Shown here one piece after another: positions 15,105 to 54,938 of a DNA stretch of 64,000 bases. Position numbers and translations under genes: made by a program. Each line of letters begins with the position of its first letter. Position 1 is the first letter of the stretch. Under the pieces are notes generated by a model. It did no database searches. It was given only the letters and a program-made list of their open reading frames with translations, and had not been told where the DNA came from. This DNA is from Myxococcales bacterium (GTDB lineage Bacteria; Desulfobacterota; Binatia; UTPRO1; JBBIJE01). The DNA lies in assembly GCA_037446155.1 (NCBI GenBank), contig JBBIJE010000013.1, forward strand, positions 17,008 to 81,007, read 5' to 3'.

Positions 15105-15114
15105 GCCCCCTCTG

Positions 15115-31021: not shown

Positions 31022-31834
31022 TCATGAAGAGATGAGACCGCCTCTGCCGGGTCCCGCATCGAACCCTTCCAGGGCGAAGGTTGCGATTGGGTCCCTCACT
31101 CCCGGTGCTCGCACGGGCGGAAGCTCTCGCAAGATGAACCGGGGATCCAAGGCCGCCTTTACGGAAGCCGTAACGAGGATCTCAGCTCCGTGCGCCCGCG
31201 TAAGACGCTCCACCCGTGCCGCCATGTTGACGTTTCCCCCGACCACGGTAAATTCGACCAGCTCGCCGCTTCCGAAGACCCCGGCCACTGCCACTCCCTT
31301 GTGGATGCCGATTCCCGCCCGAAGCGCTGGCACCCCCTGAGCCGCGAGCTCGACGTTGTAGGCGCGGAGCTCTTCTCGCATGGCCAGGGCCGCGTGGGCC
31401 GCGTCGTTGGCCTGCCAAGGGTTCGGCTCGATGGCGCCGAAGAGGGCCAAAATGCCGTCTCCTATGAACTTGGCGACGTGTCCCCGGCTGGTACTGATGG
31501 CCTTGCTCATGCGCGCGAAGTATCCGTTGAGAACCCGCACCAAGAGGTCCGGGTCGAGCGCTTCGCTCATGGTGGTAAATCCAACCAAATCGGCGAATAG
31601 CACGGTGACCTCTTTCTTATCCCCGCCGGTGGCGAGCTCGTCGGCTATTACTTGCTCGACAATGTCCCGAGGCGCAAAACGCGCAAAGCTCGCTTGCAGC
31701 CGCTCCAGTTCTCTTGCCGCCTCCCCGAGCCGGGTCCTGAGCTTGTGGAGGTGTCGCCTGGAGCGCAGATAGCGCGCGAAGAAAAAAAGGGCCAGCGCTC
31801 CCGTCGTGGTAGAGAGAATCCAGGGCGCGGTCAT
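31022..31834 (-). CDS. membrane-anchored class III adenylate/guanylate cyclase
   Basis: From the ATG at 31834: one TM helix, a coiled coil, then a CHD domain with VTVLFADLVGFTTMSE, GIHKGVAVAGVFG and VVGGNVNMAARVE. Confidence 0.88.
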   Translation of the reverse strand: MTAPWILSTTTGALALFFFARYLRSRRHLHKLRTRLGEAARELERLQASFARFAPRDIVEQVIADELATGGDKKEVTVLFADLVGFTTMSEALDPDLLVRVLNGYFARMSKAISTSRGHVAKFIGDGILALFGAIEPNPWQANDAAHAALAMREELRAYNVELAAQGVPALRAGIGIHKGVAVAGVFGSGELVEFTVVGGNVNMAARVERLTRAHGAEILVTASVKAALDPRFILRELPPVRAPGVRDPIATFALEGFDAGPGRGGLISS

Positions 31835-35203: not shown

Positions 35204-35596
35204 GTGAGCCGGCCGAGGAGGATCGCGGCGAGCGGGCTACTGTTGCATGTAACCGCTCGTTCGGGCGAAGGGCGCGCGGCATTCGAGTCGGAGGAGGACA
35301 GGCGAGCGTTTCTTAGCCTCCTTCGCAAATACGAGCGCCGCTATCGGCTCAGGCTTCACTCGTACGCGCTCCTTCCCGACCACTTGCACCTCCTCCTTTC
35401 CAGTGATCTCGACGGCGGCATCTCCCGGGCGATGCGGGATATCCTCGGAAGCTACAGTAAATACTACAACCGCAGCCGCAACCGGCGGGGGTCCCTGTGG
35501 GACGGGAGGTATAGGTCGGAGGTGGTGGGGGGGGCTTCACTGCACCAGGCCCGTTTGCGGCTATGCCAGACCGGCCGAGCGGTTGGCAAATGTTAA
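35204..35596 (+). CDS. REP-associated tyrosine transposase-like HUH (IS200/Y1) protein, apparently C-terminally short
   Basis: RRIAASGLLLHVTARSGEGRAAFESEEDRRAFLSLL...LHSYALLPDHLHLLL contains the HUH motif; GSLWDGRYRSEVV follows. It ends after 130 aa, and the usual Y-I-x-x-N-P-V catalytic tyrosine region is not recognisable. Confidence 0.7.
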   Translation: MSRPRRIAASGLLLHVTARSGEGRAAFESEEDRRAFLSLLRKYERRYRLRLHSYALLPDHLHLLLSSDLDGGISRAMRDILGSYSKYYNRSRNRRGSLWDGRYRSEVVGGASLHQARLRLCQTGRAVGKC

Positions 35597-35912: not shown

Positions 35913-37256
35913 GTGAGGGGGGGCCATCCCAAGGAGCAGCAAGCAAGAGTGGGGCTAGGGCGGCTTTGCGGGCCCTGGTTCGCCGGCAAGGCTCGGAAAG
36001 CATTTGTTTGGGCTTCTATAGGGAAGGTCGTAACCCAGGGGGGGCAGCTCGTCCAGATGGCGGTGCTTGCCCGGTTACTCACGCCCGAGGACTTTGGCGC
36101 CATCGGGATTGCGCTATTAGCGCTTGGTCTCTTAGATGCGCTGACGCAAACAGGATTTGATGCAGCGCTGGTGCAGCGGCGTGGCCGAGCCGAGGAATAC
36201 CTTGGAACTGCGCTTACGGTTCAATTGACGCGCGGCATTGCGCTTGCGGTAGTGCTTTGGATGGGGGGACCGTTCGTTGCGCGGTTATTCCGGAGTTTCA
36301 AAGTGGTGGAGGTGACCCAAATCTTAGGGGTGGCTGTCGGCTTGCGGGGGCTGGTTAACCCCGCCGTGGCGACGTTGAACAGGGAGCTTGAGTTTCGTCG
36401 GATCTTTTTGATCAACCTTTCGGAGACGGTGGCTTCCACGATCGTCGGAGTCGCGCTTGGCTTCAGTCTGCGGGACGTGAGGGCGCTGGCTGGGTCGCAG
36501 GTTGCAGGGCAGGTTGCGCGTGTGGTCTGTTCGTACCTCGTTATTCCTTGGAGCCCGCGGTTTGGGTTGCAGCTTGCTGCCCTACAGGAATTGGGGACGT
36601 TCGGCAGGTGGGTGTTCGCCGCGAACATTGTGGTGTTCAGCGGCCTTCAGGCAGACAGGCTGTTCATTGCTCGAGCGTTGGGAGACGAGGCGTTAGGCCG
36701 CTACTTGATGGCGTTTCGCATCTCGGAGCTCCCCGTCACCACTCTTACGTTTGTGGTTTCCCAGGTGGCGTTCCCTGTGCTGAGCCGCCTGCAGGCCCGT
36801 AAGCCGGAACTCGCGGCCCGCTACGTCAGGGGGTTCCAATTCCTTCTCTCGGTGAATGGGGTGGTGACGGCCTTCATTTTCGGGTTGGCCGGCCCGCTCG
36901 TAAAGATATTGCTCGGCGCCCAGTGGATGGATGTCGCCGCGGTACTTAGGATCCTGGTTTTGGCCAATTTTGCCAGGTCTCTACTAAGCTTCGGTGGCTG
37001 CTTGTTCTACGCCGCTGGCCGTCCGCACCTTAATTTTGTGATGAACGCTGTGAGATTTGTTGTTCTTGGAGGACTGCTCTACCCGTCTGCCCGGGAGTTT
37101 GGATTGGTGGGGGCGGCGGGTGCCGTGTTGGTCGCGAATTGCGCGATGGGAGTATTTTACGTGCGGAGTGTGCGCAGCTTGCTTGGTTTATCTTTGAAGA
37201 AACACTTCGCACCTCTGGTACCCACTGTGGATGGTGGTCCAGGGAAGATCTTGTAG
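35913..37256 (+). CDS. Wzx-type oligosaccharide flippase (MOP superfamily)
   Basis: About 12 hydrophobic segments. The N-terminal LARLLTPEDFGAIG motif is typical of polysaccharide biosynthesis flippases. The start is uncertain. Confidence 0.8.
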   Translation: MRGGHPKEQQARVGLGRLCGPWFAGKARKAFVWASIGKVVTQGGQLVQMAVLARLLTPEDFGAIGIALLALGLLDALTQTGFDAALVQRRGRAEEYLGTALTVQLTRGIALAVVLWMGGPFVARLFRSFKVVEVTQILGVAVGLRGLVNPAVATLNRELEFRRIFLINLSETVASTIVGVALGFSLRDVRALAGSQVAGQVARVVCSYLVIPWSPRFGLQLAALQELGTFGRWVFAANIVVFSGLQADRLFIARALGDEALGRYLMAFRISELPVTTLTFVVSQVAFPVLSRLQARKPELAARYVRGFQFLLSVNGVVTAFIFGLAGPLVKILLGAQWMDVAAVLRILVLANFARSLLSFGGCLFYAAGRPHLNFVMNAVRFVVLGGLLYPSAREFGLVGAAGAVLVANCAMGVFYVRSVRSLLGLSLKKHFAPLVPTVDGGPGKIL

Positions 37257-37280: not shown

Positions 37281-37943
37281 TTGTTGCGTACACACGCTAG
37301 GAGCGCGCTTGACAGGTTCCTTGAGTCGTGTGCGTCGGAGAATTTGACCCTCGATATCGGCTGGGGGGATTCTCCCTACCGAGGCAGATTCCCGAACCGC
37401 ATTAGGCTGGACATTGCCATGCGTGAAGGCATGACGGTGCGGGGGAACGCTGGCGCGCTGCCCTTCAAGGACGGCAGTTTCGAGGTGGTGTTGTGTACCG
37501 AGCTGCTTGAGCACGTCCCAGATCCCAAAGCAGTGGTGGAAGAATTATACCGCGTGCTACGCCGGGGAGGCCGGTGCATCCTTTCGACGCGGTGTTGCTA
37601 TCCACTGCACGGTGGACCCCGCGACTTCTACCGTTTCAGTCGGTTCGGGTTGGAGTACCTCTTTGGCGGTTGGCGCATAGAGGTGCTTGAGGAAGACACC
37701 GGAGCCCTTGGCGCCTTAACGACGACGCTCCATGCTCTGCGGTCATTTCATCCGGGAGAGTCAAGGGAGCTTACGCGGGTCGGCACGCGATTGGGATTGG
37801 CATTTTGCGAAGTCATCTTGCGCCTTTGGCGAGCGCTTGTGGGGGACCAGGACGGCCGCTTGTGTAGCGGGTACAGGATGATTGCCGTCAAGTCCTGCGC
37901 ACCGGCAGAAGATGAGCTGGCGAGGACGGGTGGCCCGGGGTAA
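37281..37943 (+). CDS. class I SAM-dependent methyltransferase (MT1)
   Basis: LPFKDGSFEVVLCTELLEHVPDPKAVVEELYRVLRRGGRCILS is Methyltransf_11-like. Confidence 0.8.
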   Translation: MLRTHARSALDRFLESCASENLTLDIGWGDSPYRGRFPNRIRLDIAMREGMTVRGNAGALPFKDGSFEVVLCTELLEHVPDPKAVVEELYRVLRRGGRCILSTRCCYPLHGGPRDFYRFSRFGLEYLFGGWRIEVLEEDTGALGALTTTLHALRSFHPGESRELTRVGTRLGLAFCEVILRLWRALVGDQDGRLCSGYRMIAVKSCAPAEDELARTGGPG

Positions 37944-38449
37944 TGGGGGGCGCGATGGTTCAAATTGCTTTGCATGCCTGCAGGTTGCGGTGCGTTCCTG
38001 TGTGCCGCGTGATTGGAGATGATTGGCAGTGGAAAGTACCTGACCAGGCGAAGGGGCGTGAGAACCGGGTGGGGTTGGGGAGCAGCGAGGCAAGAGTAAG
38101 GGGCACGGAGGCAATCGAGCGTTCCGTTTGGCGACGATTTTGCGTGGAGTGCAAACTTCCCTTGCGCCAGGAGGGATGTGGCTGGGACGCCGGGGGGGGC
38201 TGGGCCTTCCCCGGGTGGCAGCGGCTGCGTTCTTCCGACCGACCTGGTTTAAGCGGCGGGGCGGGCGGCGTTCCTGTCCAGCGGTACCGAAGGTGCCGGA
38301 GGCGGGTGTTTCCAGCGGCGTGCACGCCACCGCGCGAAACGGTTTGTTCGGCGAGTGACGGAGGGCCAGCGATTTCCTCGGGTACCGGTCTTTCTCGGGC
38401 GTTCACGGTGGCTTTGGTTTTTTGCCACTTAGGGAAGCGTTAGATCCTT

Positions 38450-39238
38450 ATGCGTGGCGGATTCGTGACATTCGGCCGGTGGCAAGTTGCCCAGCGCGAT
38501 GAACAGAGACACTGGGTGAGTCGGCTGCAGGACACTGTGGAGCCAGAGAGGGGAAAAGAGAGGCTGAAGGAGCGTGCAGGAGAGATTGAGCGATATGTGC
38601 GGGGGCATGGTTCATTCGCGGAAAGGCCAGTTTTGGAAATAGGCATTGCTGGAATGGGGGAGATTGGCTTTCTGCAATACCCTGGGCGGTATGCGTTTGA
38701 TCGTTTAGCGCTAGTTTTCCTGCGCGCCTTCCCACAGGTGTGTCACGGTTTTCCACAGCTGCCTGCAACGGGGGAGTGCCTTTCGTTCGCCGGTCAGTCG
38801 TTTGACGTTGTTATTGCCGTCAACCTCCTTGACGAAGCGCTAGCGCCAGCCAGCGTGATGCGTGAGATGACGCGTGTGTGCAGGTTGGGGGATACGTTTG
38901 CCCGGAGAAACACGTTTACTGGAAGGCTGGTGGGGGTATCAGGGGGCTTACTCGAGAAGCTCTGGCGCACAAGTGGACTACCTGTGCTGCGTACCAAGGA
39001 TGCCCACACGATCAGCCGAGCGGTGCTGGAATGTCTTCTGAGACAACCCACGCTCGAACCCGTGGGACAGAGCTACACGTCTTGGAGCGATGGGCGCAGA
39101 CATTTCCGTGCGGCGTCAAGTTTTAAGGTGAAAGCTCTGACAGGTTACGGGCTGTTTCCTATTGTTGTTCCCCGGGGTCTCTCGAAGACGCTTTGGCGGG
39201 CAGCTGTATGGTACCTGGCACACTTAAAGCTTGGCTAA
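38450..39238 (+). CDS. class I methyltransferase-fold protein, divergent (MT2)
   Basis: VLEIGIAGMG resembles motif I, and LSFAGQSFDVVIAVNLLDEALAPASVMREMTRV resembles post-I/II. The match is weaker than for the other MTs. Confidence 0.5.
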   Translation: MRGGFVTFGRWQVAQRDEQRHWVSRLQDTVEPERGKERLKERAGEIERYVRGHGSFAERPVLEIGIAGMGEIGFLQYPGRYAFDRLALVFLRAFPQVCHGFPQLPATGECLSFAGQSFDVVIAVNLLDEALAPASVMREMTRVCRLGDTFARRNTFTGRLVGVSGGLLEKLWRTSGLPVLRTKDAHTISRAVLECLLRQPTLEPVGQSYTSWSDGRRHFRAASSFKVKALTGYGLFPIVVPRGLSKTLWRAAVWYLAHLKLG

Positions 39239-39341
39239 CAGGAATCAGGCGGGTGCGGCTAAATTTGCGGCGCCTCTTCGAAGGGGAAGGCTGGCCACCA
39301 CCGTCAACAGCACGCAGCCGCTGCCCGTTGATTAGCGAGAG

Positions 39342-40346
39342 ATGACGATGGGACGAGTGGCGCCCGACCGAGAACTTCAGCTGCGGCCGGGTCACGGTGC
39401 TGGCCTCTGCCCTGTGTGCAGCAGAGAGACAGAAGTCGTGTTCGGCGGAATCGAAGGTCGGTACATAATGCTGAGGTGCGCGGCTTGTTCCGTCGAGTTT
39501 GCCTCTCCGTTAGAACCGGCCGGCACGGTTGAGTACGACAAATCTTACAACAGGCCTGCTGGAGGACGGCGGCCGCGGACCGTACGGGAGGCGCTGACCA
39601 GAATCAGACAGGCGCCGCGCTACAAGGCCTTCTTCAACCAGGTTCCGATCTCGCCAGGTGTCAGACTGCTCGACATTGGATGTGGCACGGGCGCATTTCT
39701 TGTGGAGGCGGCCCGCCGTGGGGCGGACGTTTACGGGGTGGATCTGGCCGCGTCAGCTGTTTCATATGCGAGGACCGAGTTCGGGTTGCGGAACGTTGCT
39801 GTTGTTGCTGAAGGGCAATTGCCGGATGAGTGGGGCTACTTTGATGTCATAACTGCTTTCGAGGTTGTCGAGCACATTACGTCCCCTCGAGGCTTAGTTG
39901 CTTGGGGATTTGAGCACCTACGGCCGGCTGGGTCGTTCTTCATTACTGTGCCAGATGCGGAGCGGCTGGAGGTGAAGGTCGGTCGTCGGCCAGCCGGTGA
40001 CCGACCGCCGAATCACTTAACGCGCTGGTGCCCACAAGCATTGGAAAAGCTTTTGTGGACGCAACCTTGGTGTGAGGTGCGAGTCAGCCGCACAGCGCTT
40101 GAACTTACCGAAGTGCTGGCGGCGGTAGCTCCGAGGGCGCCCAGAACCACGAAGGGTACCAATATGGTAAGGGCTAGCCAGCACCACGGATTTGTTGGTT
40201 CTTTGATCAGGCGGAGTCAAGTCCCTGGAATGATTCGAGATGCTGCAAACCGTCTCCTTTGGCACGCCTTCCCGCTTTGCGCTAGGGTTGGTGTCTACGG
40301 GCACTCGCTCGTCGGACAAGCCGTTAGGTCTCGAGAGACCCGATGA
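39342..40346 (+). CDS. class I SAM-dependent methyltransferase with N-terminal zinc-ribbon (MT3)
   Basis: CPVCS...RCAACS forms a Cys4 ribbon. LLDIGCGTGAFLVEAARRGADVYGVDL and FDVITAFEVVEHITSP are methyltransferase motifs. Confidence 0.85.
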   Translation: MTMGRVAPDRELQLRPGHGAGLCPVCSRETEVVFGGIEGRYIMLRCAACSVEFASPLEPAGTVEYDKSYNRPAGGRRPRTVREALTRIRQAPRYKAFFNQVPISPGVRLLDIGCGTGAFLVEAARRGADVYGVDLAASAVSYARTEFGLRNVAVVAEGQLPDEWGYFDVITAFEVVEHITSPRGLVAWGFEHLRPAGSFFITVPDAERLEVKVGRRPAGDRPPNHLTRWCPQALEKLLWTQPWCEVRVSRTALELTEVLAAVAPRAPRTTKGTNMVRASQHHGFVGSLIRRSQVPGMIRDAANRLLWHAFPLCARVGVYGHSLVGQAVRSRETR

Positions 40347-41914
40347 AACTCGCAGGATTATTGCAAAGTGCAGTGAGTTCCACGGGTTATCCTCATTGGT
40401 GGGATCGTCCGTCTTGCGGTTCCTCTTACCGGATGGGCAAGTACCAGCCGCGCTACGTGGCGCACCGGCTGTTGGCCAAGGCGGAGGCGGCAGTGCGGCG
40501 CAGGGACGCGCGGGCTGTAATGGGTAGTGCGCTCGCAGCACTAATGGTAGGGGGTGTTTTGGGACTGAAGGCAGTACATGGCGCCATGGTACTTCTTGCA
40601 TTTGGGTTTGTCTGTTGTTCGTCTTTGATCCCGTTGGTGGGACTGGCCGGTTTGACGACAGTGGCGGCCACTCTGAACACGAAGGCGCTGCTTGCTTACC
40701 GAATGACCATTGCAGGGAATTCCCTCCCTATAAATGTCGTCGAGATGGTTGCAGTCATGTGTGCACCGGCTGTTGCTGCTTGCCTGGCACGAACGCGAGG
40801 GCAATGGAGCCGGCGCACCGCGGAGATGGACGTCAAATTGGTGGTTTTGGCGATGGTCTTCCTCCTGGGCACTGCGTGCGGGGCGATACGGGGCAATCCG
40901 TGGTACGACATTGCATGGGGGCTTCGCCACATGGTGCTGATATCCTTTGCGTACTGGTTTACGCGGATATCGTTGGCGCGCATCAAAGAGTTGCGCTGTC
41001 TGGTCACCTTATTGGTAATTGGTGCTACGTTGGACGCCGTTCAAGGCTATGCGAGTCTCGCGGAACGTTTAAGTGCGCATAGCACTGGGCTTCCTCGGGA
41101 TAACTGGGTGACATCCGGATTCTATAGTATCGGCTTTGTGATTGCGATGGCGCTTAGGCTGCACGGGGTTAACGTCTTGGGGAACCGGCTCACAGCGCTC
41201 GCTGTGATTTGCGTGTGCGGTGGCTGGTTTGTCGCTTCTTTCCGGCGCGCTGGCATGCTACTGCTACCCATCCTTTTCGCTATTTTGGGTGGCGCGGTGC
41301 TTTCGAGGGCAAGAGCGAGAGTGAAGAGTTTCATGAGAGCGCGTGCTTTGCTGGTACCGGGCGTCACGATTCTTTGTTTCTTGTTTGTGCCCGAGGTGGC
41401 CACTGAGAGGTGGCTCGAGACACTATACGGCGCCCTTTCATCGCTCTTACGCGAACAGGTTGATGTGTCGGTAAGTGCCAGGCTTAGCTCCCTGCGTGCA
41501 TTGCTTACCTGGTTTGGGGATCACCCATGGCTGGTTCTAACCGGTGGTGGCCTAGGTACGACGTACGAATACTTCGCAGAAGGCTCTTATGGCCCTATGC
41601 GTTCGCCGGGAATGGGAGTCTATGGGTATTACTTGCTTAATCTCGGTGTGATTGGGTTGGGAACCCTCGTTTGGATTCAACTTCGATTTCTACGCTTCAC
41701 AAGTAGGCTCTGGGCAGAGGCGGATAATCCATATGGGCAAGGCCTCGCGCTCGCTCTGCTGGTCTATGGGGTTTATGTAATGGCGACGATGGTGCCAAGC
41801 GGGAACTTTTTGATGCCGCAGCTATCGGTCTTGTACGGCGTCTTCCTGGCGCTTCCGTGCGCGGTTCGCTCGCTTTGCCCGTTGGGTCCCAGGACAGGAG
41901 TGGCGCGCGAATGA
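40343..41914 (+). CDS. polytopic membrane protein, O-antigen polymerase/ligase (Wzy)-like
   Basis: More than 10 hydrophobic helices with a larger loop. Sits in a Wzx/GT cluster, with its ATG overlapping the upstream stop. The family call rests on topology and context only. Confidence 0.55.
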   Translation: MKLAGLLQSAVSSTGYPHWWDRPSCGSSYRMGKYQPRYVAHRLLAKAEAAVRRRDARAVMGSALAALMVGGVLGLKAVHGAMVLLAFGFVCCSSLIPLVGLAGLTTVAATLNTKALLAYRMTIAGNSLPINVVEMVAVMCAPAVAACLARTRGQWSRRTAEMDVKLVVLAMVFLLGTACGAIRGNPWYDIAWGLRHMVLISFAYWFTRISLARIKELRCLVTLLVIGATLDAVQGYASLAERLSAHSTGLPRDNWVTSGFYSIGFVIAMALRLHGVNVLGNRLTALAVICVCGGWFVASFRRAGMLLLPILFAILGGAVLSRARARVKSFMRARALLVPGVTILCFLFVPEVATERWLETLYGALSSLLREQVDVSVSARLSSLRALLTWFGDHPWLVLTGGGLGTTYEYFAEGSYGPMRSPGMGVYGYYLLNLGVIGLGTLVWIQLRFLRFTSRLWAEADNPYGQGLALALLVYGVYVMATMVPSGNFLMPQLSVLYGVFLALPCAVRSLCPLGPRTGVARE

Positions 41915-43194
41915 CAAGCAAGAGAATCGGGACGCTTGCGGTCATATCCCGTTCAGTCTTTGTTGACCATGGCCACAAGCTCGGGTTTCACCCGCTGGAC
42001 GGAGCTTACATTGACCGTCTCGCGAGCTACTTTGAGCGAGTAGTATTGTATGCCCCAATTATTAGGCGGGGGACAGGCTCGTACAGCGTATTTCAGGGCT
42101 ACGACTATGAGATGCAGGCTCGGAATCTGGAAGTGGAGGGGCTTCCGGCTGGATCTGTGGCATCTGGGGGCCTGTGCGAGGCGACTTTTCGCCTCGCGCG
42201 GGTGTGGTGTTACTTACTTAAGGAAAGCCGCGCATGGGATTTTGCGTACGTTTTCATGCCGTCTCCAGTGGGAGTTGCAGCCGCTACAATATGTTTGGTA
42301 TCCGGTGTAAATTACGCAGCGTACCTCGGGGCTGAGTGGGCCCGATTCGCCCAAATGCACTTCCGGTGGAGAGGCGTTAGAGGGGTTGTGTTGCACAAGC
42401 CGTACGTGATCGCTGCTGGCCTCCTTGAGCAGTGGGTGATGCGACATGCCAGGCTCCGTGTTGTCGTAGGGCCAAAGCTGTTCGAACGATACCGCTCGCT
42501 CGCCCCGACGATGGAAACGCCGCCGCTCCTGAAGTTAGGTAAAAGCGATTTCTACTGGAGGCTGGACACCTGCCAAAGAACGCCGATCACGTGTTTAACG
42601 GTGGCATCACTGCATCCCAGGAAGGGGCTTTCATACTTACTGAAGGCTTTGGCTTTGTTGCGTGAGCGCGGGTGGAGAATTGTCCTCGAAGTGGTGGGGA
42701 GTGGGGAGTCACTGTTTGACCTGCAACGGCTGGCGTTCCAGCTTAACATCGATCGCCATGTGCGGTTTTCCGGATACTTGTCGAACGGACCCAGCCTTTT
42801 TGCCATGTACCGGGCGGCAGACATCTTTGTTTTGCCCACCCTTGGCGAAGGATTCCCCAGGGTGCTTTATGAAGCGATGGCACACGGCCTTCCCATCGTC
42901 ACTACGAGTGTGGACAGCATTCCGTACCTGATAAGGCACGGCAGCGAAGGGCTGCTAGTCGCCCCGCGTTGTCCTGAGGCCTTAGCGTCAGCCGTAGAAA
43001 CGATAATCACGGACAAGGAGCTGCGTCAGCGTTTAATACGCAACGGCCTCGCCATGGCCGAGCGGGTAATCGGTGCAGACCCCGCGAAGAAGGCTGCTGC
43101 CGAAATCTTCAGTGTGCTGGTGAATGAGCATAATTTGCCTAAGAGGGGGTTCGCAGCGGCGACGCCGGACGGCCATGACGGAGGCGCTTCGTGA
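41911..43194 (+). CDS. glycosyltransferase family 4 (GT-B), GT-a
   Basis: ADIFVLPTLGEGFPRVLYEAMAHGLPIVTT is an E-x7-E type motif. The ATG overlaps the upstream stop. Confidence 0.85.
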   Translation: MTSKRIGTLAVISRSVFVDHGHKLGFHPLDGAYIDRLASYFERVVLYAPIIRRGTGSYSVFQGYDYEMQARNLEVEGLPAGSVASGGLCEATFRLARVWCYLLKESRAWDFAYVFMPSPVGVAAATICLVSGVNYAAYLGAEWARFAQMHFRWRGVRGVVLHKPYVIAAGLLEQWVMRHARLRVVVGPKLFERYRSLAPTMETPPLLKLGKSDFYWRLDTCQRTPITCLTVASLHPRKGLSYLLKALALLRERGWRIVLEVVGSGESLFDLQRLAFQLNIDRHVRFSGYLSNGPSLFAMYRAADIFVLPTLGEGFPRVLYEAMAHGLPIVTTSVDSIPYLIRHGSEGLLVAPRCPEALASAVETIITDKELRQRLIRNGLAMAERVIGADPAKKAAAEIFSVLVNEHNLPKRGFAAATPDGHDGGAS

Positions 43195-43202
43195 CCTGAC
43201 TC

Positions 43203-43910
43203 GTGTTTGGAAGACGTGCAATGAGGGAGTTTGCGAGTATTAGCTGCACGGCCTCAGGCTACCTTGAGAGGTACCAGAAGGTGCAGGTCAACACGGGCTT
43301 CCAGTGGGCAGCCAGTTTTTTGGCGGGCAAGAAGGTGCTCGATCTCGGGTGTGGCAATGGCGAATACTTGGCGCGCTTAGGGCCTGGGTGTGTAGGCGTC
43401 GACGTTTCCTTTCGCAATGTGGCCATCTGTCAGCAACGTGGGTTATTAGTGAGACAGCTAGACGTGAACCGAGGTCTCGATATTTTCGAAGACGCTGCGT
43501 TCGAAGCGGTTCTTTGTGCGCACCTGCTTGAGCACCTGGATAGTCCCATCAGAGCGCTGCGGGAAATCAACCGCGTTATCGCCCCGGGGGGAGTTGTCGT
43601 GATCGGCCTGCCCGTGGAAGGCGGCTTGAGTCGAACCGGTAGATCGTATTACCGCAAACACGAAGGTCACCTTCAAAGCTTTTCGCTCGAAAACTTGTTG
43701 CATCTGCTGAGGTTGACAGGCTTTCGCACAATGGCGTGGTATTACGAGCTGCCGCTGTTAGACAGGTTAGCGCGTGGGAAGCTACTGCCTCCCCTGCAAC
43801 GTTTGCCGGCTTGGATGCTGTCGCGAGTAGCCAAGGGTCTTTGGGTAGCTGCACGGAAGGAGGCGAAACCTCGGGCCCCGTTTGTGAATAATGGTCACAC
43901 TGAAGCCTAG
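43203..43910 (+). CDS. class I SAM-dependent methyltransferase (MT4)
   Basis: VLDLGCGNGEYLARLG and FEAVLCAHLLEHLDSPIRALREINRVIAPGGVVVIGLP. Confidence 0.85.
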   Translation: MFGRRAMREFASISCTASGYLERYQKVQVNTGFQWAASFLAGKKVLDLGCGNGEYLARLGPGCVGVDVSFRNVAICQQRGLLVRQLDVNRGLDIFEDAAFEAVLCAHLLEHLDSPIRALREINRVIAPGGVVVIGLPVEGGLSRTGRSYYRKHEGHLQSFSLENLLHLLRLTGFRTMAWYYELPLLDRLARGKLLPPLQRLPAWMLSRVAKGLWVAARKEAKPRAPFVNNGHTEA

Positions 43911-45129
43911 GCGCATAAGCTACAGTTTGGATGCTGGCAGAAGTGGCGCCGCATCGCGGCCGGTCAGGGTAGCGGTAGTTCAGGAGATCCTGGCTCACTA
44001 CCGGGTCCCCATTTTTCAGCGGTTGGCAACTACAGAGGGCATAGAGCTCTGTGTCTATTACGGGGCGGGAATGCGCGGGTACCCCAAGCGAAGTGTAACG
44101 AATCGCGAAGGTGTGCCCGGCAAAATGGTGCGGAATTACTACCTCCGGTGGGGTGACCTCACCTTGTGTTTTCAACCTGGCGTGTTGCGGCACCTCTTCT
44201 TGGGCAACTACGATGTCATTATTTGCGGCGATTCACCGTGGATTGTTACAAATCTTCTGTTGCTTCTTTATAGGAAGTTGCGAGGTGCCAAACTCATTGC
44301 GTGGGGCGGGACCAGAGAGCCAGCCGTAGTGACCCTGCCAAGGCGCGTCTTCAGGTACCTCGGGAAAGCAGCTAAGAGGCACCTATATCGGCACATTGAT
44401 GCGTTTATCGCATACGGGACATGGGGCGCACGGTATTTTGCCTCGATGGGTGTCCCCGGTTGGAAGATCTTCATTGCATACAACTCGATAGACACGGAGA
44501 GGGCATTCCGGCTCAAGCGGCAAGTGAGTATCGAGGACCGACGTACATGGGGCGTTCTTGAGGGGACCTCTCTTGGGCAGAGCTTGAGTGTGTTGTACGT
44601 AGGGGCACTCCTTCGAGAGAAGAAAATCGACAACCTTTTGGCTGCCTACAGCCGGATCGTTACAGGTGCGTCCGCATCTGACCCCTGGTTGTTGATCGTG
44701 GGTGACGGCCCTGAGCGTGAACGGCTCGAAGCGTTAACGGCAGCGCTTCGGCTGGACAGGGTTCGGTTCTTCGGCCGGCTGGGGGATGAAGATCTCGCAA
44801 GGCTCATGGTGGTAGCTGATGTAGTGGTCTTGCCTGGCCACGGCGGGCTGGCTGTGCAGCAAGCGCTGGCCTTTGGCAAGCCCGTGATTGTTGGCGAGGC
44901 CGACGGTACCGAAAGCGATTTGGTGCAGGATGGCGTGAATGGGTTTCGGCTTCAATCGGGCGGGAGCGTGGATGAGCTTGCGTGCAAATTGCGGTGTGTT
45001 CTAGGCGATGCCACTTTGCGAAGGGCTATGGGCAATGCCTCAACGGCAACCGTTCGTGAGCGCGTGAATGTTGACGTAATGTTGCAAGGTTTTCTCGGGG
45101 CGCTTCGGTTTGTCAACCAGGCTGGATGA
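43891..45129 (+). CDS. glycosyltransferase family 4 (GT-B), GT-b
   Basis: VVVLPGHGGLAVQQALAFGKPVIVGEADGTESDLVQDGVNGF. Confidence 0.8.
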   Translation: MVTLKPRRISYSLDAGRSGAASRPVRVAVVQEILAHYRVPIFQRLATTEGIELCVYYGAGMRGYPKRSVTNREGVPGKMVRNYYLRWGDLTLCFQPGVLRHLFLGNYDVIICGDSPWIVTNLLLLLYRKLRGAKLIAWGGTREPAVVTLPRRVFRYLGKAAKRHLYRHIDAFIAYGTWGARYFASMGVPGWKIFIAYNSIDTERAFRLKRQVSIEDRRTWGVLEGTSLGQSLSVLYVGALLREKKIDNLLAAYSRIVTGASASDPWLLIVGDGPERERLEALTAALRLDRVRFFGRLGDEDLARLMVVADVVVLPGHGGLAVQQALAFGKPVIVGEADGTESDLVQDGVNGFRLQSGGSVDELACKLRCVLGDATLRRAMGNASTATVRERVNVDVMLQGFLGALRFVNQAG

Positions 45130-45908
45130 GGGGCGGGGTGTTGAGCATTAGACGCGCCTGGATGATCCTTAAGCGCGAGACCAAATTTACGCGGAGGATG
45201 GAGGTAAGGGCTATCGCGGGGTGGGCAGCGGTGAGGGAGGCTGATGTCATGTGTGATATCGGCTGCGGGGATGGCTATTACACGTGGCGCCTAGGACGGG
45301 CTGCTCGCCTTGTGGTTGGAGTCGACGTGGATATGGACGCTCTGCAGCGGGCTAAGCGTGGGAAATACCCCCACTGTGAGTTTGTTGTAGCTTCGGCAGA
45401 GGCGCTTCCATTTCGCGCTAACGTTTTTACGAAAATCGTAAGCGTTTGCGCTTTGGAGCACTTTTCCAACGATGGGCGGGCGCTGGGGGAAATCAGCCGG
45501 GTGTTGAGGCCTGGATGCTGCGTTTGCCTTAGCGTAGACAGCCTCACCTGTTCGTGGATCCCGGTGAGGTGGCGGGAGGCACACCGCCGAAACGCGAAAG
45601 TTCTCAATTACTACGATCATACTAGCTTAGCTGACAAATTGGCGGCGGCTGGACTCGCACCGGACAGGTGGCGTTACCTTGTAACGTCGCGACTTTCTAG
45701 TTTTCTAGTGAGGCTGGGATCGCTTTGGGGAGGGCGGATGTTCTCTGTAACCTGCCCGATTTTCTATCCTCTAGTGTTGCTGAGTGACAGGATCACGAAC
45801 ACGAGGCGTGGCGGTCACAAATTGGCTATCCGCGCGTTCGCGGTTGAACCACCCCGAGGGAGCAACAGGCTTGCTGGTGCCGAGGGTCAAGCCGGACGGA
45901 AGGGCTGA
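45126..45908 (+). CDS. class I SAM-dependent methyltransferase (MT5)
   Basis: VMCDIGCGDGYYT and LPFRANVFTKIVSVCALEHFSNDGRALGEISRVLRPGCCVCLSV. The ATG overlaps the upstream stop. Confidence 0.85.
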   Translation: MRGGVLSIRRAWMILKRETKFTRRMEVRAIAGWAAVREADVMCDIGCGDGYYTWRLGRAARLVVGVDVDMDALQRAKRGKYPHCEFVVASAEALPFRANVFTKIVSVCALEHFSNDGRALGEISRVLRPGCCVCLSVDSLTCSWIPVRWREAHRRNAKVLNYYDHTSLADKLAAAGLAPDRWRYLVTSRLSSFLVRLGSLWGGRMFSVTCPIFYPLVLLSDRITNTRRGGHKLAIRAFAVEPPRGSNRLAGAEGQAGRKG

Positions 45909-45911
45909 CGC

Positions 45912-47087
45912 ATGCGGATAGGGCTTGATTTGCTTTCGGAGGTCGCGGGCCGGTCATCGGGAACGGAAACGTACTTGATGGGCTTCCTAAAAGCACTTGC
46001 GGCAGCGACTGCGGATGATAGTGAGGTATTCCTGTTCGTCAACTCGCAAAACGCCCGTTTGTACGAGGTACAAGGCACGCGGTTCCACCACGTCCGGCTT
46101 CCTTTTTCTAATAGGCAGCCTGGGTTACGCGTCCTGAGCCAACTGTTCCTCATTCCTTACCACGCGAGGAGCCTTGGCCTGGACGTCGTCAACTTTCTCG
46201 GAACTACCGGCGCCTTCTTCGCAGGGTGCGCGACTGTTCAGCACGTCAAGACACTGCACCATCTTTTGTGCCCGAAGGCCGTTTTGCCAAGCAGAGCTCT
46301 GTTCAGGAGGTTTTTGATGGGGCCGTCGGCTCGCGCTGCCGATCTCGTGATCGCGAACACGGAGAGTACAAGAGGGGCGGTTATCCGATTGCTCAGAGTG
46401 CCACCCGCACAGGTGAGGGTTGTGCCCGAAGCTGTCGACCACTCGATTTTCTTCCCGAGAGTTCTGGATGACCAGTACGGGGTGACTCTCGCGAAGTATC
46501 GTATACGGCGGCCCTATTTACTTTTTGTCTCATCTCTTTGGCCGTACAAGAACGTGCACGGCTTTCTTCGGGCCTGCGGTGTGTTGACTGCCGCCCATGC
46601 GATTCCTCATAGTTTCGTCGTTGTGGGTGGCCTGGGGCCTTCGCGTTATCAGGCGCGGCTTCAAGAGCTAGCTAACCAACCCAACCTCCGCGGCAGGGTG
46701 CTTTTTCTTGGCCACCTTCGAGACCGTAGGGAGATTAGGGACATCTACGTCGGTGCCGATGTTTATGTTCAGCCCTCCTATGAGGAAACCTTCGGTCTAA
46801 CCGTCCTGGAAGCCATGGCTTGCGGTGTTCCCGTCGTTGCGGCCGACCGTGGCGCGATTCCGGAAGTTGCGGGGGATGCGGCCTTGTTGGTTAACCCCGA
46901 CGACGCGAAGGCAATAGCCGATAGCATATGGTGGGTGATAAGCGACCACCGGCGTCGGCAGCAACTGAAGGAGAAAGGGCTTTTGAGGGCCCGTAGCTTC
47001 AGTTGGGTGCGCACCGCTGCGGAGACGCTTGAGGTGTACCGAGCGGCGGTTCAGATTAGGGCAAAGGGGGGGCGTCAACTGCCGTGA
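45912..47087 (+). CDS. glycosyltransferase family 4 (GT-B), GT-c
   Basis: ADVYVQPSYEETFGLTVLEAMACGVPVVAADRGAIPEVAGDAALLVNP. Confidence 0.88.
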   Translation: MRIGLDLLSEVAGRSSGTETYLMGFLKALAAATADDSEVFLFVNSQNARLYEVQGTRFHHVRLPFSNRQPGLRVLSQLFLIPYHARSLGLDVVNFLGTTGAFFAGCATVQHVKTLHHLLCPKAVLPSRALFRRFLMGPSARAADLVIANTESTRGAVIRLLRVPPAQVRVVPEAVDHSIFFPRVLDDQYGVTLAKYRIRRPYLLFVSSLWPYKNVHGFLRACGVLTAAHAIPHSFVVVGGLGPSRYQARLQELANQPNLRGRVLFLGHLRDRREIRDIYVGADVYVQPSYEETFGLTVLEAMACGVPVVAADRGAIPEVAGDAALLVNPDDAKAIADSIWWVISDHRRRQQLKEKGLLRARSFSWVRTAAETLEVYRAAVQIRAKGGRQLP

Positions 47088-47459
47088 CTGCTGTTTTGAC
47101 TGTAACAGATGCCTTTGTTTGGCGATCATGTTGTGGCGCAACACGCGCTCAGCTGGGCCTAGCAAGGGAACATCGCCCTTTCGGTGGCCGGACGGCCCTG
47201 CTCAAGTTCCGTAGTAGCGCGCTTAGAAACGGAGAGGGCATGCCAGCATGGTGGTGGGAGCCGCCGTATGAATTTCGGACGTGTTTCCGGCTAGCCCGGC
47301 ACTCGAGGTGCGCTGGTGTTGGCGATGCAACGCGGTGCCGGAACGTTGGCCTGCCCCATCGGCCCAGTAAGCCGGTCAATGGGCCGAGCGCCAACAATGC
47401 CTTGGCGTGTTGGGACGTGAGGAGGTTGGCTTATTGGGCACGCTAAGAGGTGGGGCACC

Positions 47460-48284
47460 ATGGTGCGCCGACTGCTGACCCAGGTGCGGCCGGGCGGCGC
47501 TGTGGCGGTTGCCTCTCCGCGGAACACGGAAGAGGAACGGACCCGCCAGGTCGAGTATTATCGCAAGACCACGGGCGCCGAGGACGAGATAACTCGCCCG
47601 AGGTGCTACCCCCGGGCGGTGCGCTACTTGCTTACCTTGAAGGTTCGGTTGGCACTGTCCGCGCTTCGGTTTGAGCGCCCAGGGGGACGCTTGCTTGCGG
47701 TCTGTTGTGGCTCTGGGATGGATGCAGAATGGCTAGCGCGACGTGGGTTCAAAGTCGTGGGGGTAGATTTTTCCCGCGAGGCGGTTCTTCGGGCGAAAGA
47801 AAGGGCCAGGAGGTACGGTGTTCATTATGATTTGGTAGTCGGAGACGCAGAGCACCTGCCGTTTCGCGACGGTGCATTTGACGTCACATTCGTACACGAC
47901 GGACTTCATCACCTCTCGGATGCATACCGAGGCGTCCGGGAGATGGTAAGAGTTGCGACGCGGGCGGTGGCAATTGCCGAACCGGCCAATGGCGTGCTTA
48001 CCCGACTTGCAGTTAGGCTGGGCCTTGCCGGCAGATACGAGGAAGCGGGGAACTACGTTTTCCGCTTGAGCGAACGGCGCTTAGCTCAGGTGTTTTCCCA
48101 GGCCGGTGCCCGCGGGTGGGCTTTTCGCCGTGACTTCATCTACTACCAGCCGTGGACTTTCAAGTTCTATAAGATATGCGATCGCGACCCCATGTTTCTG
48201 CTCTTCAAGTTGTGCTTTTACCTCTGCAACCTCACCGTTGGACGTTGGGGGAACTCGTTGAAGGCGGTGGCTTGGAAGGCCTGA
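47460..48284 (+). CDS. class I SAM-dependent methyltransferase (MT6)
   Basis: LLAVCCGSGMDAEWLARRGFKVVGVDFS and GDAEHLPFRDGAFDVTFVHDGLHHL. Confidence 0.85.
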   Translation: MVRRLLTQVRPGGAVAVASPRNTEEERTRQVEYYRKTTGAEDEITRPRCYPRAVRYLLTLKVRLALSALRFERPGGRLLAVCCGSGMDAEWLARRGFKVVGVDFSREAVLRAKERARRYGVHYDLVVGDAEHLPFRDGAFDVTFVHDGLHHLSDAYRGVREMVRVATRAVAIAEPANGVLTRLAVRLGLAGRYEEAGNYVFRLSERRLAQVFSQAGARGWAFRRDFIYYQPWTFKFYKICDRDPMFLLFKLCFYLCNLTVGRWGNSLKAVAWKA

Positions 48285-48285
48285 G

Positions 48286-50208
48286 ATGTGCGCCATCTGC
48301 GGCACTTACGGCTTCAGTGATAGGGAGCTGCTCCAGCAAATGTGCGATGTCATGATGCATCGGGGCCCGGACGACGAGGGCTTCTACGTTGGCGACCAGG
48401 TGGGTCTGGGCATGCGTCGCCTTAGCATAATCGATGTGAGAGGCGGGCACCAGCCGATTTGCAACGAGGATAGGACAGTTTGGGTGGTGTTCAACGGAGA
48501 GATCTACAACTTCCGTGAGTTGCGCGTGGAGCTCGAAAAGCGAGGCCATCATTTTCGGACCGGGACAGATACAGAGGTCTTAGTTCATGCGTATGAGGAG
48601 TTTGGCGATTCCTTGGTGCAGAGGATTAGAGGGATGTTCGCCTTTGCGATTTGGGATTCAAGAACCAGGCGCCTCTTGCTTGCCCGAGACCGTGTCGGCA
48701 TGAAGCCACTATATTACAGGTGGCAGTGTGGCAGGCTTTGGTTCGCCTCGGAGATAAAAGGCATCCTGCAGTCGGGCTGCTCGCGCGAGTTGGATTTTTT
48801 CGCGTTGCACGAGTATTTTTCGCTTGCGCACGTGCCAGCACCGCGCACGATTTTCAAGGACATCCGCAAACTCCTGCCGGGGCATATTCTCGTGTGTTCT
48901 GACGGGAGCATGAGCGTACACCGGTATTGGGACCCGATGCCACCAAAGCGCCGGACGCTCGATTGGGACAGCGCGAAAGCCGAGACACGGCGGTTATTGG
49001 AGGAAAGCGTGCGGGAGCACCTTGTTTCCGATGTCCCACTTGGGGCGTTTCTCAGCGGCGGCGTGGACTCTACCGCTATCGTCGCCTTTATGGCCAGACA
49101 TAGCCAAGAAGCGGTCCGCACCTTTTCGCTAGGATTCGAGAAACGCGCTTGCTACTTTGACGAATTAGCCTATGCCAGGATCGCCGCAGCGCACTTCGGC
49201 ACCAGACACACTGAGATTCCTGTGACGGTGGATGTGGTGGATCTCCTGCCGCAGGTGATTTCCCACTTTGACGAGCCCTTCGCCAACGACACTGCCTTGG
49301 TCATGTACCTGCTCTCCAAGGAGGTGAGGAGGCATGTGACCGTTGTGCTCAGTGGGACTGGCGGTGACGAGTTATTCGCCGGTTACAATCGCTACGTCGG
49401 AATGCGACTGGCCGAGCTTTACAGCAAGGCGCCTCGCCTTCTCAGGAAGGTGATGGCTGACGTAGTCGCACAGGTGATCTCGGAGCGCGTTGATGGCCGC
49501 CACTTCCCCCGCTGGCTCCGGGAATTCACGGCAGCAGGCCTGGTAGGGAGCGAAGACCGGTATCTGAGTTGGGTGACATATTTCAGCGAGGAGGCAAAGC
49601 ATGAGCTTTATGGCGACCTACTGCGTGAGCTGTGCAACGGCGCCAGCGGTGCCTCGATAGTGCAGAGCTGTTTACGGGCACTCGACGATCGGCGGGACTA
49701 TGGAGATGCCATGTTCTACGCAGACGTTAAGGAGTACCTTCCGAACGATCAACTCGAGTACAGCGAAAAGATGAGTATGGCTCACTCCTTGGAGCTGAGG
49801 GTTCCCTTTTGCGACCACCGGCTCGTCGAGTTCTGTGCATCTGTACCGCTCTCTTTGAAAACGAGAGGATTCAGACCGAAGCGGCTTCTCAAAGAAGCGC
49901 TGCGCGGGCTTGTTCCGGATCAGATAATCGACCGGCCCAAACATGGATTGCATGCTCCGATCGGTATTTGGCTTCAGACCGATCTGGCACCGCTCCTCGG
50001 GCGCCTTTTGTCCCGTGAGGTAGTGGAGAGAAGAGGCTATTTTCGTTACCAGGCTATCCAAAAACTCATCGGCCTCCATAACTCCGGCAAGCGGGACTTG
50101 TCATGGCAGATCTGGATGCTCCTGGTATTCGAGTTGTGGCACATGGCGTACCTGGATGGGGGCATCACAGCGACGCAATGGTCGCATTTGGGTGATCGCT
50201 GGGCGTAA
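48286..50208 (+). CDS. asnB: asparagine synthase (glutamine-hydrolysing) family amidotransferase
   Basis: N-terminal MCAICG (Cys2 Ntn nucleophile), LSGGVDSTAIVA PP-loop, about 640 aa. Confidence 0.9.
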   Translation: MCAICGTYGFSDRELLQQMCDVMMHRGPDDEGFYVGDQVGLGMRRLSIIDVRGGHQPICNEDRTVWVVFNGEIYNFRELRVELEKRGHHFRTGTDTEVLVHAYEEFGDSLVQRIRGMFAFAIWDSRTRRLLLARDRVGMKPLYYRWQCGRLWFASEIKGILQSGCSRELDFFALHEYFSLAHVPAPRTIFKDIRKLLPGHILVCSDGSMSVHRYWDPMPPKRRTLDWDSAKAETRRLLEESVREHLVSDVPLGAFLSGGVDSTAIVAFMARHSQEAVRTFSLGFEKRACYFDELAYARIAAAHFGTRHTEIPVTVDVVDLLPQVISHFDEPFANDTALVMYLLSKEVRRHVTVVLSGTGGDELFAGYNRYVGMRLAELYSKAPRLLRKVMADVVAQVISERVDGRHFPRWLREFTAAGLVGSEDRYLSWVTYFSEEAKHELYGDLLRELCNGASGASIVQSCLRALDDRRDYGDAMFYADVKEYLPNDQLEYSEKMSMAHSLELRVPFCDHRLVEFCASVPLSLKTRGFRPKRLLKEALRGLVPDQIIDRPKHGLHAPIGIWLQTDLAPLLGRLLSREVVERRGYFRYQAIQKLIGLHNSGKRDLSWQIWMLLVFELWHMAYLDGGITATQWSHLGDRWA

Positions 50209-50516
50209 GTCAGATGGCAGCATTTGGATTCCATGCCAGTGGTATCGAGAAATCGAGCGACCCTGCGGACGGTCGCGGTGGCAGCCAGGGGTGGCTCGAC
50301 GCCGGGCCAGCGCTTGCGGTATGGCTGAGCACCGGTGTTGCGATGACGTCGGCAGAGGCGACGCCGTTGGGGTGCACTTCAGCCGTGGGTGGCCTTGACG
50401 TTGATAGGCAAGTTCCTCTTGAGCGAAATCTTCGCTGCGGCCGAACTCGGGAGGGTTAGACGCTTGGATTTCAAAGCGCTGGCGGGATTGTGGGACAATC
50501 TCTGGGGAACGTTTCT

Positions 50517-52802: not shown

Positions 52803-52820
52803 AGTGATGTTGGGGAGGGG

Positions 52821-54899: not shown

Positions 54900-54938
54900 G
54901 GGAGGCGCAAGGTGCTCGTTTCGCGAGGAGGGGCGGAG

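Follow-up and report, generated by a model that had tools for sequence, protein, structure and literature searches.

Among the described systems closest to the locus treated here, the O-glycosylation cluster of Tannerella forsythia comprises wzx, gtfSMILE (five glycosyltransferases, GTs), mtfJOY, asnB, wecC and wecB and has been dissected by knock-outs and mass spectrometry (PMC6120980). Its methyltransferases (MTs) 4-O-methylate ManNAc-uronamide (the uronamide of N-acetylmannosamine) and galactose, and the three of them give two methyl groups, two MTs being required for one of these (PMC6120980), so that the number of MT genes does not equal the number of methyl groups. In Mycobacterium tuberculosis, the three adjacent MTs Rv2954c, Rv2955c and Rv2956 act in sequence on a single fucose of the phenolic glycolipid (PGL) PGL-tb, adding methyl groups at its positions 2, 4 and 3 (PMC3594219), and the mycobacterial cluster for methylmannose polysaccharide (MMP) consists of MeT1, MmpH, pMeT3 and ManT, of which the GT4 enzyme ManT prefers methylated acceptors (PMC9883506). 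The present locus lies in a stretch of 64,000 nucleotides of the bacterial contig JBBIJE010000013.1, referred to as the window, in which six genes for class I S-adenosylmethionine (SAM)-dependent MTs, one gene for a Wzy-like protein and three genes for GTs of family GT4 occupy positions 37281-48284 directly 3' of a Wzx flippase gene.

Natural fusions of GT and MT domains are known from chlorovirus PBCV-1 (A064R) and from Geobacillus (WsaE), as are MT-containing terminators of the WbdD type from Klebsiella and E. coli. The MTs of the WbdD type carry fused kinase and coiled-coil modules and act as chain terminators in ATP-binding cassette (ABC)-transporter (Wzm/Wzt) pathways. The O-antigen of the Gram-negative soil bacterium Rhizobium etli CE3 (wreA, wreB, wreC, wreD, wreF) reportedly contains multiply O-methylated residues owing to several MT genes; its pathway is said to depend on an ABC transporter, with most of the methyl groups on the terminal capping fucose, and we know of no report of GT-MT alternation in this system. 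A search of the literature retrieved no described multi-MT cluster for a Wzy-dependent exopolysaccharide (EPS).

The gene order of the locus, Wzx, MT1, MT2, MT3, Wzy-like, GT-a, MT4, GT-b, MT5, GT-c and MT6, had been proposed in a first-pass annotation of this DNA and was confirmed by open reading frames (ORFs) and Pfam matches (Table 1). Each of MT1-MT6 matches a Methyltransf_11/23/25 profile above the Pfam gathering score, which served as the test for a class I MT, and the Glycos_transf_1 E-values of GT-a, GT-b and GT-c span 1e-27 to 1e-37. Two local hidden Markov models (HMMs; one class I MT_11-like, the other Methyltransf_21), run on the stop-to-stop ORFs of the window and of fetched loci, detected six MT ORFs in the window, all within 37.3-48.3 kb. 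As background, 153 glycan loci around distant GT-c homologues (2.07 Mb) yielded 47 MT matches, with a maximum of 2 MTs in any 11-kb span, a count that is a lower bound since the local HMMs miss other MT families. The MT density of the locus is thus far above background; a rough binomial estimate for at least 6 MTs among 14 genes gives P ~3.5e-7.

Like the T. forsythia cluster, which is polycistronic, the locus is encoded on one strand and combines Wzx, several GTs, interspersed dissimilar MTs, an AsnB-like enzyme and a nucleotide-sugar dehydrogenase. However, the T. forsythia cluster holds three MTs in 27 kb, compared to six in 11 kb here, shows no strict alternation and directs the synthesis of a protein-linked decasaccharide in a Bacteroidota host, using pseudaminic-acid genes that are absent from the window. 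The PGL-tb genes likewise form a dense block of position-specific sugar O-MTs adjoining GTs and provide a possible model for MT1-MT2-MT3, but act on a phenolic lipid acceptor in an actinobacterial host that employs no Wzx/Wzy for this purpose, all three MTs serving one terminal fucose. The best precedent for methylation-coupled elongation is the MMP cluster, in which a GT4 enzyme works with dedicated O-MTs; its product, in contrast, is a homopolymer made in the cytoplasm without a lipid carrier or a flipping step, and the four-gene cluster includes a recycling hydrolase. The analogy to mycobacterial polymethylated polysaccharides drawn in the first-pass annotation fails on pathway type, and membership in these systems (MMP and methylglucose lipopolysaccharide, MGLP) was rejected, because the locus has Wzx, polyprenyl-phosphate glycosyl-1-phosphate transferases (PGTs), a Wzy-like protein and four different GT4 enzymes. 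A WbdD-type terminator was rejected as well, since the MTs carry no kinase or coiled-coil modules and Wzx is present; no ABC-transporter gene was found among the ORFs scanned. With the Wzx-dependent cluster of T. forsythia and the mycobacterial PGL and MMP clusters as precedents, the further statement that no equivalent had been described proved to be overstated.

The MT genes lie inside a glycan cluster and run in the same direction as its GT and flippase genes. Neither NCBIfam models nor matches in the Protein Data Bank (PDB) place any of the MTs in a characterised sugar-MT family. As a functional class, the locus is best filed with cluster-embedded glycan-tailoring MTs. It elaborates on a type of system already known and represents the extreme case of a habit common to its relatives. 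New are the degree, with six MTs in 11 kb and strict alternation over six genes, and the finding that a conserved GT4 gene is always immediately preceded by an MT gene, the family of which changes between loci.

This conserved gene is GT-c. Its closest homologues form a tight clade of metagenomic proteins with 55-61% identity, followed by a second tier of 42-52% and by proteins from Actinomycetota with at most 40%; a scan of GTDB species representatives with a GT-c profile retrieved only homologues of 29-40% identity, which were used as background and not as relatives. All relatives with a GT-c identity of at least 55% and available upstream sequence have an MT gene immediately 5' of GT-c, and this MT belongs to three unrelated types, namely MT5-like, an MT_23 type of 311-343 aa and Methyltransf_21. 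Among the loci of distant homologues, an MT gene was found directly upstream of the GT-c homologue in 1/120 and directly downstream in 0/123, and the locus of a 42% homologue (L172) contains no MT.

The closest counterpart of the gene run is found on a 4.5-kb soil-type metagenome contig (L001), which holds the best homologue of MT5. It is collinear with positions 42910-47984 of the window and keeps the order GT-a/MT4/GT-b/MT5/GT-c/MT6 at amino acid identities of 51%, 40%, 43%, 56%, 61% and 64%, respectively. Nine contexts of the tight clade were examined in addition (L004, L005, L006, L007, L089, L090, L169, L170 and L171; GT-c identity 56-60%), and the relative loci contain 2-4 MTs each. The gene orders are Wzx-Wzy_C-GT4-MT21-GT-c-MT21-GT4-radical SAM in L004 and L005; MurJ-like-MT-GT-MT21-MT23-GT-c-rml genes in L006; GT-MT21-MT23-GT-c-rml genes in L007, L171 and, partially, L090; MurJ-MT-GT-MT21-MT23-GT-c-MT21-GT4 in L170; and GT-MT-MT21-GT-c-Wzy_C-MurJ, followed by MT-GT4 on the opposite strand, in L169, which also encodes a GNVR chain-length protein inside the locus. 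The interleaving of GT and MT genes is hence a property of the clade: the order is kept in L001 and interleaving recurs across the clade, although the orders are not always strict.

The flanks are shared with clade loci as well. Identities between the window and these loci amount to 66% for the small PGT (L006/L007), 55% for the epimerase, 53% for the HddA-like kinase and 50% for GmhA, and the heptose-gene flank formed by the latter two is also present in L007, L090, L169 and L171. No known version of this hypervariable glycan locus, common to one poorly sampled lineage, holds more MTs than the window. The poor sampling is indicated by the housekeeping protein IlvD, for which the top identity is 78% and the next about 70%, to proteins from several phyla. 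Although some distant GT-c homologues belong to Actinomycetota, nothing indicates that the host is a member of this phylum.

In L004 and L005, the cluster ends with a radical SAM gene (11366-12394 and 11191-12219, respectively), the product of which could C-methylate or otherwise modify a sugar. A particular relationship of GT-c to the mycobacterial enzyme ManT is unsupported: the GT-c family profile matches MshA-like GT4 enzymes generically, its best matches are generic GT4 structures such as MshA, and no chain labelled methylmannose-polysaccharide mannosyltransferase is listed among them.

Table 1. Position, strand and supporting matches of the features of the window.
Feature	Position	Strand	Evidence or remark
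tRNA-Ala(GGC)	19973-20047		
Wza-type outer-membrane polysaccharide export protein	21212-22378	+	Poly_export + SLBB, E 1e-20
Wzc-type co-polymerase/tyrosine kinase	22460-24745	+	Wzz, GNVR and P-loop ATPase domains
Adenylate/guanylate cyclase	31022-31975	-	
HEPN-domain protein, 313 aa	33480-34421		
IS200-like Y1 transposase ORF	35204-35596	+	PF01797, E 3.7e-12; 317 nt upstream of Wzx
Wzx flippase	35913-37256	+	Polysacc_synt_3 (PF13440), E 3e-65; multiple hydrophobic segments
MT1	37281-37943	+	Methyltransf_11, 54 bits (cut-off 21.2)
Spacer, apparently non-coding	37944-38449		506 nt; 166-aa ORF inside, no Pfam match
MT2	38450-39238	+	PF08241, 21.9 bits (cut-off 21.2)
MT3, zinc ribbon + class I MT	39342-40346	+	Methyltransf_23, E 4e-21
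Wzy-like polytopic membrane protein, 523 aa	40343-41914	+	Position and topology only
GT-a, GT4	41857/41911-43194	+	Glycos_transf_1, E 5.5e-37
MT4	43203-43910	+	Methyltransf_23, E 7e-20
GT-b, GT4	43891-45129	+	Glycos_transf_1, E 1.4e-27
MT5	45126-45908	+	Methyltransf_11, E 1.4e-18
GT-c, GT4	45912-47087	+	Glycos_transf_1; clade-conserved (55-61% identity)
Spacer, apparently non-coding	47088-47459		372 nt; absent in L001
MT6	47460-48284	+	Methyltransf_11, E 1.9e-21
AsnB-like glutamine amidotransferase	48286-50208	+	Asn_synthase, E 6e-102
Zinc-dependent alcohol dehydrogenase + GFO/IDH/MocA fused oxidoreductase, 770 aa	50490-52802	+	
Heparinase II/III-like protein	52821-54899	+	
Nucleotide-sugar 6-dehydrogenase (uronic-acid precursor)	54912-56267	+	TIGR03026, 388 bits (cut-off 190); nearest UDP-glucose 6-dehydrogenase
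GT-d, GT4, stp1-like	56341-57573	+	TIGR03087, 307 bits (cut-off 317)
Small PGT (priming), 222 aa	57626-58294	+	Passes TIGR03025
NAD-dependent sugar epimerase/dehydratase	58310-59428	+	
Large priming glycosylphosphotransferase, 490 aa	59629-61101	+	CoA_binding_3 + Bac_transf; just under TIGR03025 cut-off
HddA-like heptose-7-P kinase	61095-62189	+	Heptose precursor gene
GmhA isomerase	62231-62899	+	Heptose precursor gene

Most junctions of the run overlap or abut, as claimed in the first-pass annotation: the distances are +24 nt for Wzx/MT1, -4 for MT3/Wzy, +8 for GT-a/MT4, -20 for MT4/GT-b, -4 for GT-b/MT5, +3 for MT5/GT-c and +1 for MT6/AsnB. The ORF of GT-a opens at 41857, and its ATG at 41911 overlaps the stop codon of the Wzy-like gene, giving a Wzy/GT-a junction of -4 if this start is used. 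The claim does not extend to three junctions with longer gaps, namely MT1/MT2 (506 nt), MT2/MT3 (103 nt) and GT-c/MT6 (372 nt); in L001, the GT-c and MT6 orthologs overlap. The ORFs of both long spacers lack the GC2<GC1<GC3 signature (GC content at the second, first and third codon position) found in real genes, the values of the ORF in the longer spacer being flat (GC1/GC2/GC3 of 0.63/0.62/0.66), and neither spacer has a Pfam or Rfam match or an MT or GT remnant. Both were therefore treated as non-coding. These stretches interrupt an otherwise overlapping gene run, with internal promoters or gene-loss scars as candidate roles. No degraded GT or MT genes were found in the region upstream of Wzx, and matches to promoter and terminator consensus sequences occurred at shuffle expectation (3 vs 4.6 and 20 vs 19.5).

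From 36 kb on, the GC content falls from about 0.65 to 0.57-0.60, and GC3 in the cluster amounts to 0.58-0.71 as compared to 0.75-0.80 in ilvD and leuB. Such an atypical composition is usual in surface-glycan loci. The IS200-like ORF at the GC drop may be the border of a cassette that was acquired horizontally or undergoes recombination.

All six proteins are clearly of the class I SAM-MT fold on the evidence of their sequences, with MT3-MT6 canonical or conservatively variant and MT1 and MT2 divergent. Against PF08241, MT3-MT6 score 56-77 bits, and the earlier count of six SAM-MTs holds with the reservation that MT2 is marginal by Pfam. The proteins comprise 220-334 aa in a single domain, to which only MT3 adds a zinc ribbon, and no hydrophobic segments were found in any of the six, indicating that they are soluble. 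Motifs were assessed by the glycine-rich loop E/D-x-G-x-G-x-G and the acidic residue ending β2. These are canonical in MT3 (DIGCGTG/GVD, behind the N-terminal zinc ribbon CPVC-x19-CAAC), MT4 (DLGCGNG/GVD) and MT5 (DIGCGDG/GVD). MT6 combines a variant motif I (AVCCGSG) with GVD, and retention of this loop in the L001 ortholog (VTCCGSG) argues for function. No MT was assigned to a non-sugar family and MT3-MT6 keep canonical or conservatively variant motifs, so that the objections anticipated in the first-pass annotation, non-sugar families or lost SAM-binding residues in most of the MTs, were not borne out.

MT1 matches Pfam through its C-terminal half only, has the motif I LDIGWGDS and a shortened αA/β2 segment. 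Its best local relative is one domain (86 bits) of the database protein P0491, a natural fusion of 1523 aa with three Methyltransf_11 domains, tetratricopeptide (TPR) repeats and a C-terminal GT4 domain. P0491 with its MT1-like domain resembles the GT-MT fusions mentioned above, whereas the MTs and GTs of the window are separate single-domain proteins. The motif I of MT2 (EIGIAGMG) fits the loose motif of its own subfamily, for which an exhaustive search gave 144 relatives of about 240 aa with a conserved N-terminal RWxxAQxxExxW, also present in MT2; 18/18 aligned members match PF08241. An MT2 profile aligns with MT5 at an hhalign probability of 96%, and an AlphaFold2 (AF2) model built on the subfamily alignment reached a predicted local distance difference test (pLDDT) score of 82 and a predicted template modelling (pTM) score of 0.82. 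Foldseek matched this model to class I MTs at E-values of ~1e-9 to 1e-11, and the highest-ranking matches included AtmM and RebM, two sugar O-MTs that act on glycosides. MT1 or MT2 may be inactive; for MT2, activity is uncertain due to a Glu in the NxLDH motif, where 16/17 aligned relatives carry His.

Pairwise identities of the MTs range from 26 to 35% over cores of about 75-160 aa (MT1/MT6, 41% over 44 aa), BLASTP detected no match between MT2 and the other five, and GT-a, GT-b and GT-c are 28-34% identical to each other. The MTs are thus not close paralogues, in agreement with the first-pass annotation, and a recent tandem duplication as their origin was rejected on the core identities. An assignment of MT3 as a nucleoside diphosphate (NDP)-hexose C-methyltransferase was rejected, too, as the domains of that family (Methyltransf_13/14) are absent from its Pfam matches. 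NF045667 ('DVU_1556 family methyltransferase') is the best NCBIfam match of both MT1 and MT5 and ranks within the first four for MT4 and for MT6; the E-values for these four proteins are 1e-9 to 1e-16, and all scores are far below its cut-off.

The explanation we favour, with moderate confidence, is that the run constitutes the variable segment, atypical in composition, of a surface-glycan locus of the Wzx/Wzy type, the lipid-linked repeat unit of which is methylated at several positions before flipping. The host would be an uncultivated diderm soil bacterium, an outer membrane being implied by the presence of Wza, and the product an exopolysaccharide, an O-antigen-like polymer or a protein-linked glycan. 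A priming PGT would start the repeat unit on undecaprenyl phosphate, and GT-a, GT-b, GT-c and GT-d, as retaining GT4 enzymes, would extend it at the cytoplasmic face. The six soluble MTs would add methyl groups at defined sites, most likely sugar hydroxyls, of the growing lipid-linked oligosaccharide. A uronic acid would be provided by the nucleotide-sugar dehydrogenase and may be amidated by the AsnB-like enzyme. The decorated unit would then be flipped by Wzx, polymerised or transferred by the Wzy-like protein and exported, probably via Wzc and Wza. The interleaved genes would represent co-translated and co-inherited modules, each of a GT plus its tailoring enzyme, and where methylation beside GT-c is retained while the MT is swapped, the methylation pattern would diversify. 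One MT per glycosyl-transfer step, as originally proposed, is possible; MT1-MT3, which lack GT partners, may decorate a single residue. The scheme draws its direct support solely from context, i.e. operon structure, conserved synteny, the adjacency of GT-c and MT genes and the P0491 fusion, and precedents from other systems lend it functional plausibility.

Several observations speak against this explanation. A perfect alternation of 3 GTs and 3 MTs has a chance expectation of 0.1; its weight therefore derives from conservation in relatives, as the pattern alone is expected 1 in 10, and the sole orthologous alternating copy, in L001, is not an independent observation. None of the six MTs reaches the cut-off of any curated NCBIfam family, and their PDB sequence matches span the generic Rossmann core only, RebM and AtmM appearing among many such matches at E-values of 1e-4 to 1e-13; the substrate class of the MTs is thus unassignable from sequence. 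The glycine loops of MT1 and MT2 are non-canonical, the Glu of MT2 replaces a near-invariant His, and the nearest MT5 homologues outside the clade have unrelated genomic surroundings, namely an ATP-synthase operon and a neighbourhood of fatty-acid genes. Wzy identity lacks sequence or structural support: the protein has no Pfam or NCBIfam match and does not resemble the Wzy_C protein encoded in L004, and its single-sequence AF2 model, with about 10 hydrophobic segments in the protein, is all-helical at a pLDDT of 44. By position and topology it is a putative polymerase or an enzyme of the ligase/oligosaccharyltransferase type. Finally, Wzx, a TIGR03025-passing PGT, Wzc and Wza all lie in the window, as the first-pass annotation had stated for the export proteins, but Wza is located 13.5 kb and Wzc 11 kb 5' of Wzx and neither is contiguous with the cluster, the intervening genes encoding TPR, DnaJ-domain, adenylate cyclase, HEPN and IS200-like transposase proteins.

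It is possible, although we give it limited credence, that the alternation has no mechanistic meaning. The MTs would then still methylate the glycan, the order would reflect a history of cassette insertion and replacement in a hypervariable locus that recombines, and GTs and MTs would not be paired 1:1, as several MTs may act on one sugar, with per-O-methylation of one residue, or may be redundant. Besides the chance expectation given above, the non-strict orders of relatives (e.g. GT-MT-MT-GT-c and MT-GT-MT-MT-GT-MT-GT) and the unpaired MT1-MT3 agree with such a history, and the low GC3, the IS200-like edge ORF and the internal non-coding gaps suggest a mosaic origin. Two precedents point in the same direction, T. 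forsythia, where three MTs account for two methyl groups and two of them are needed for the same position (PMC6120980), and PGL-tb, where three adjacent MTs serve one fucose (PMC3594219). However, a mere history does not sit easily with an MT gene 5' of GT-c in every close relative despite unrelated replacements, as against 1/120 among distant loci, nor with an L001 order kept at 40-64% identity and the start/stop overlaps at GT-b/MT5 and MT4/GT-b.

A somewhat more doubtful alternative concerns the product, which might be a short oligosaccharide moved en bloc to proteins (S-layer or general O-glycosylation) or to lipid A-core, with the Wzy-like protein acting as a ligase or oligosaccharyltransferase of the Wzy_C/WaaL/PglL type. 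Proteins of the Wzy_C family (PF04932), to which enzymes of the WaaL and PglL types belong as well, occur in relatives, and the combination of Wzx, GTs, MTs, asnB and a uronic-acid dehydrogenase parallels the T. forsythia cluster, for which transfer to protein is established; the missing family match of the Wzy-like protein and the distant Wza and Wzc genes would fit this as well. A polymer exported through Wzc and Wza is favoured, in turn, by the occurrence of both genes in the same 64-kb window, by the GNVR protein within the L169 locus and by the resemblance of AsnB, GT-d and the PGTs to EPS/PEP-CTERM-associated families. The nearest family of the AsnB-like protein, for instance, is the XrtA/PEP-CTERM amidotransferase TIGR03108 (571 bits, under the cut-off), and the protein is a candidate uronamide- or amidino-forming enzyme.

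That some or most of the MTs are not sugar O-MTs acting on the lipid-linked unit, but modify nucleotide sugars, amino-sugar nitrogen, the uronate carboxyl (giving a methyl ester) or a non-carbohydrate substituent, with MT1 and MT2 maybe inactive, appears unlikely. The atom methylated by generic class I MTs may be O, N, C or S, the MTs have no curated family assignment, and the locus makes a uronic acid and encodes an amidotransferase. Haloferax AglP is an MT that methyl-esterifies a hexuronic acid. The aberrant motif I of MT1 and MT2 and the Glu in place of the subfamily His in MT2 add to this side. Yet the SAM motifs of MT3-MT6 are intact, and the variants of MT2 and MT6 fit their own family or ortholog. 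No aminotransferase for amino-sugar synthesis was found among the ORFs scanned (35.9-62.9 kb), and the cluster-embedded MTs of such type that were tested experimentally are O-MTs (PMC6120980, PMC3594219).

Methylation-gated assembly, in which each GT4 enzyme, above all GT-c, would accept only an acceptor just methylated by the adjacent MT, so that glycosyl and methyl transfer would necessarily alternate, Wzx/Wzy/Wzc/Wza would export an unusually hydrophobic heteropolysaccharide O-methylated at every residue and MT swaps at GT-c would amount to serotype-like diversification, is a speculative extension that we regard as improbable.

If the lipid-linked unit is methylated as we favour, a heavily methylated sugar coat is predicted. 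Surface glycans with O-methylated sugars differ in hydrophobicity, in how well they withstand glycosidases and phage depolymerases and in how innate immune lectins recognise them, and the biosynthetic logic of such sugars in Wzx/Wzy pathways has been little studied. Together with its relatives, the locus provides a natural series of small size: the conserved GT4 enzyme is invariably accompanied by an MT, the type of which changes, and the MT number varies from 2 to 6. This series could be used to ask whether methylation gates glycosyl transfer and whether MT swaps drive antigenic diversification, and it is a source of candidate regiospecific sugar MTs for glycoengineering. Should the glycan turn out to be sparsely methylated, MT gene counts would again over-predict methyl groups, as in Tannerella.

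Downstream of MT6, the genes for the AsnB-like enzyme, the dehydrogenase/GFO fusion and the heparinase-like protein are consecutive (48286-54899), and L172 carries AsnB and GFO genes, too. Two priming PGTs are encoded further downstream, one consisting of the catalytic domain only (222 aa) and one of 490 aa, and both are kept in L007 and L169. Their presence suggests that the region is common to two glycans or to two routes of initiation. Upstream of the cluster, the segment 24944-34421 encodes a TPR protein, a DnaJ-domain protein of 731 aa and a protein of 559 aa with no Pfam match, as well as the cyclase and HEPN-domain genes listed in Table 1. The tRNA-Ala gene, the sole Rfam match in the window, lies next to a housekeeping block (1-19862) with genes for a CdsA-like protein, an RseP-type M50 protease, a TsaD-domain protein, ilvD, ilvC, a CDP-alcohol phosphatidyltransferase, leuA, leuC, leuB, asd, truA, a GH1 glycosidase, an MgsA/RarA-type AAA+ ATPase and an NAD kinase.

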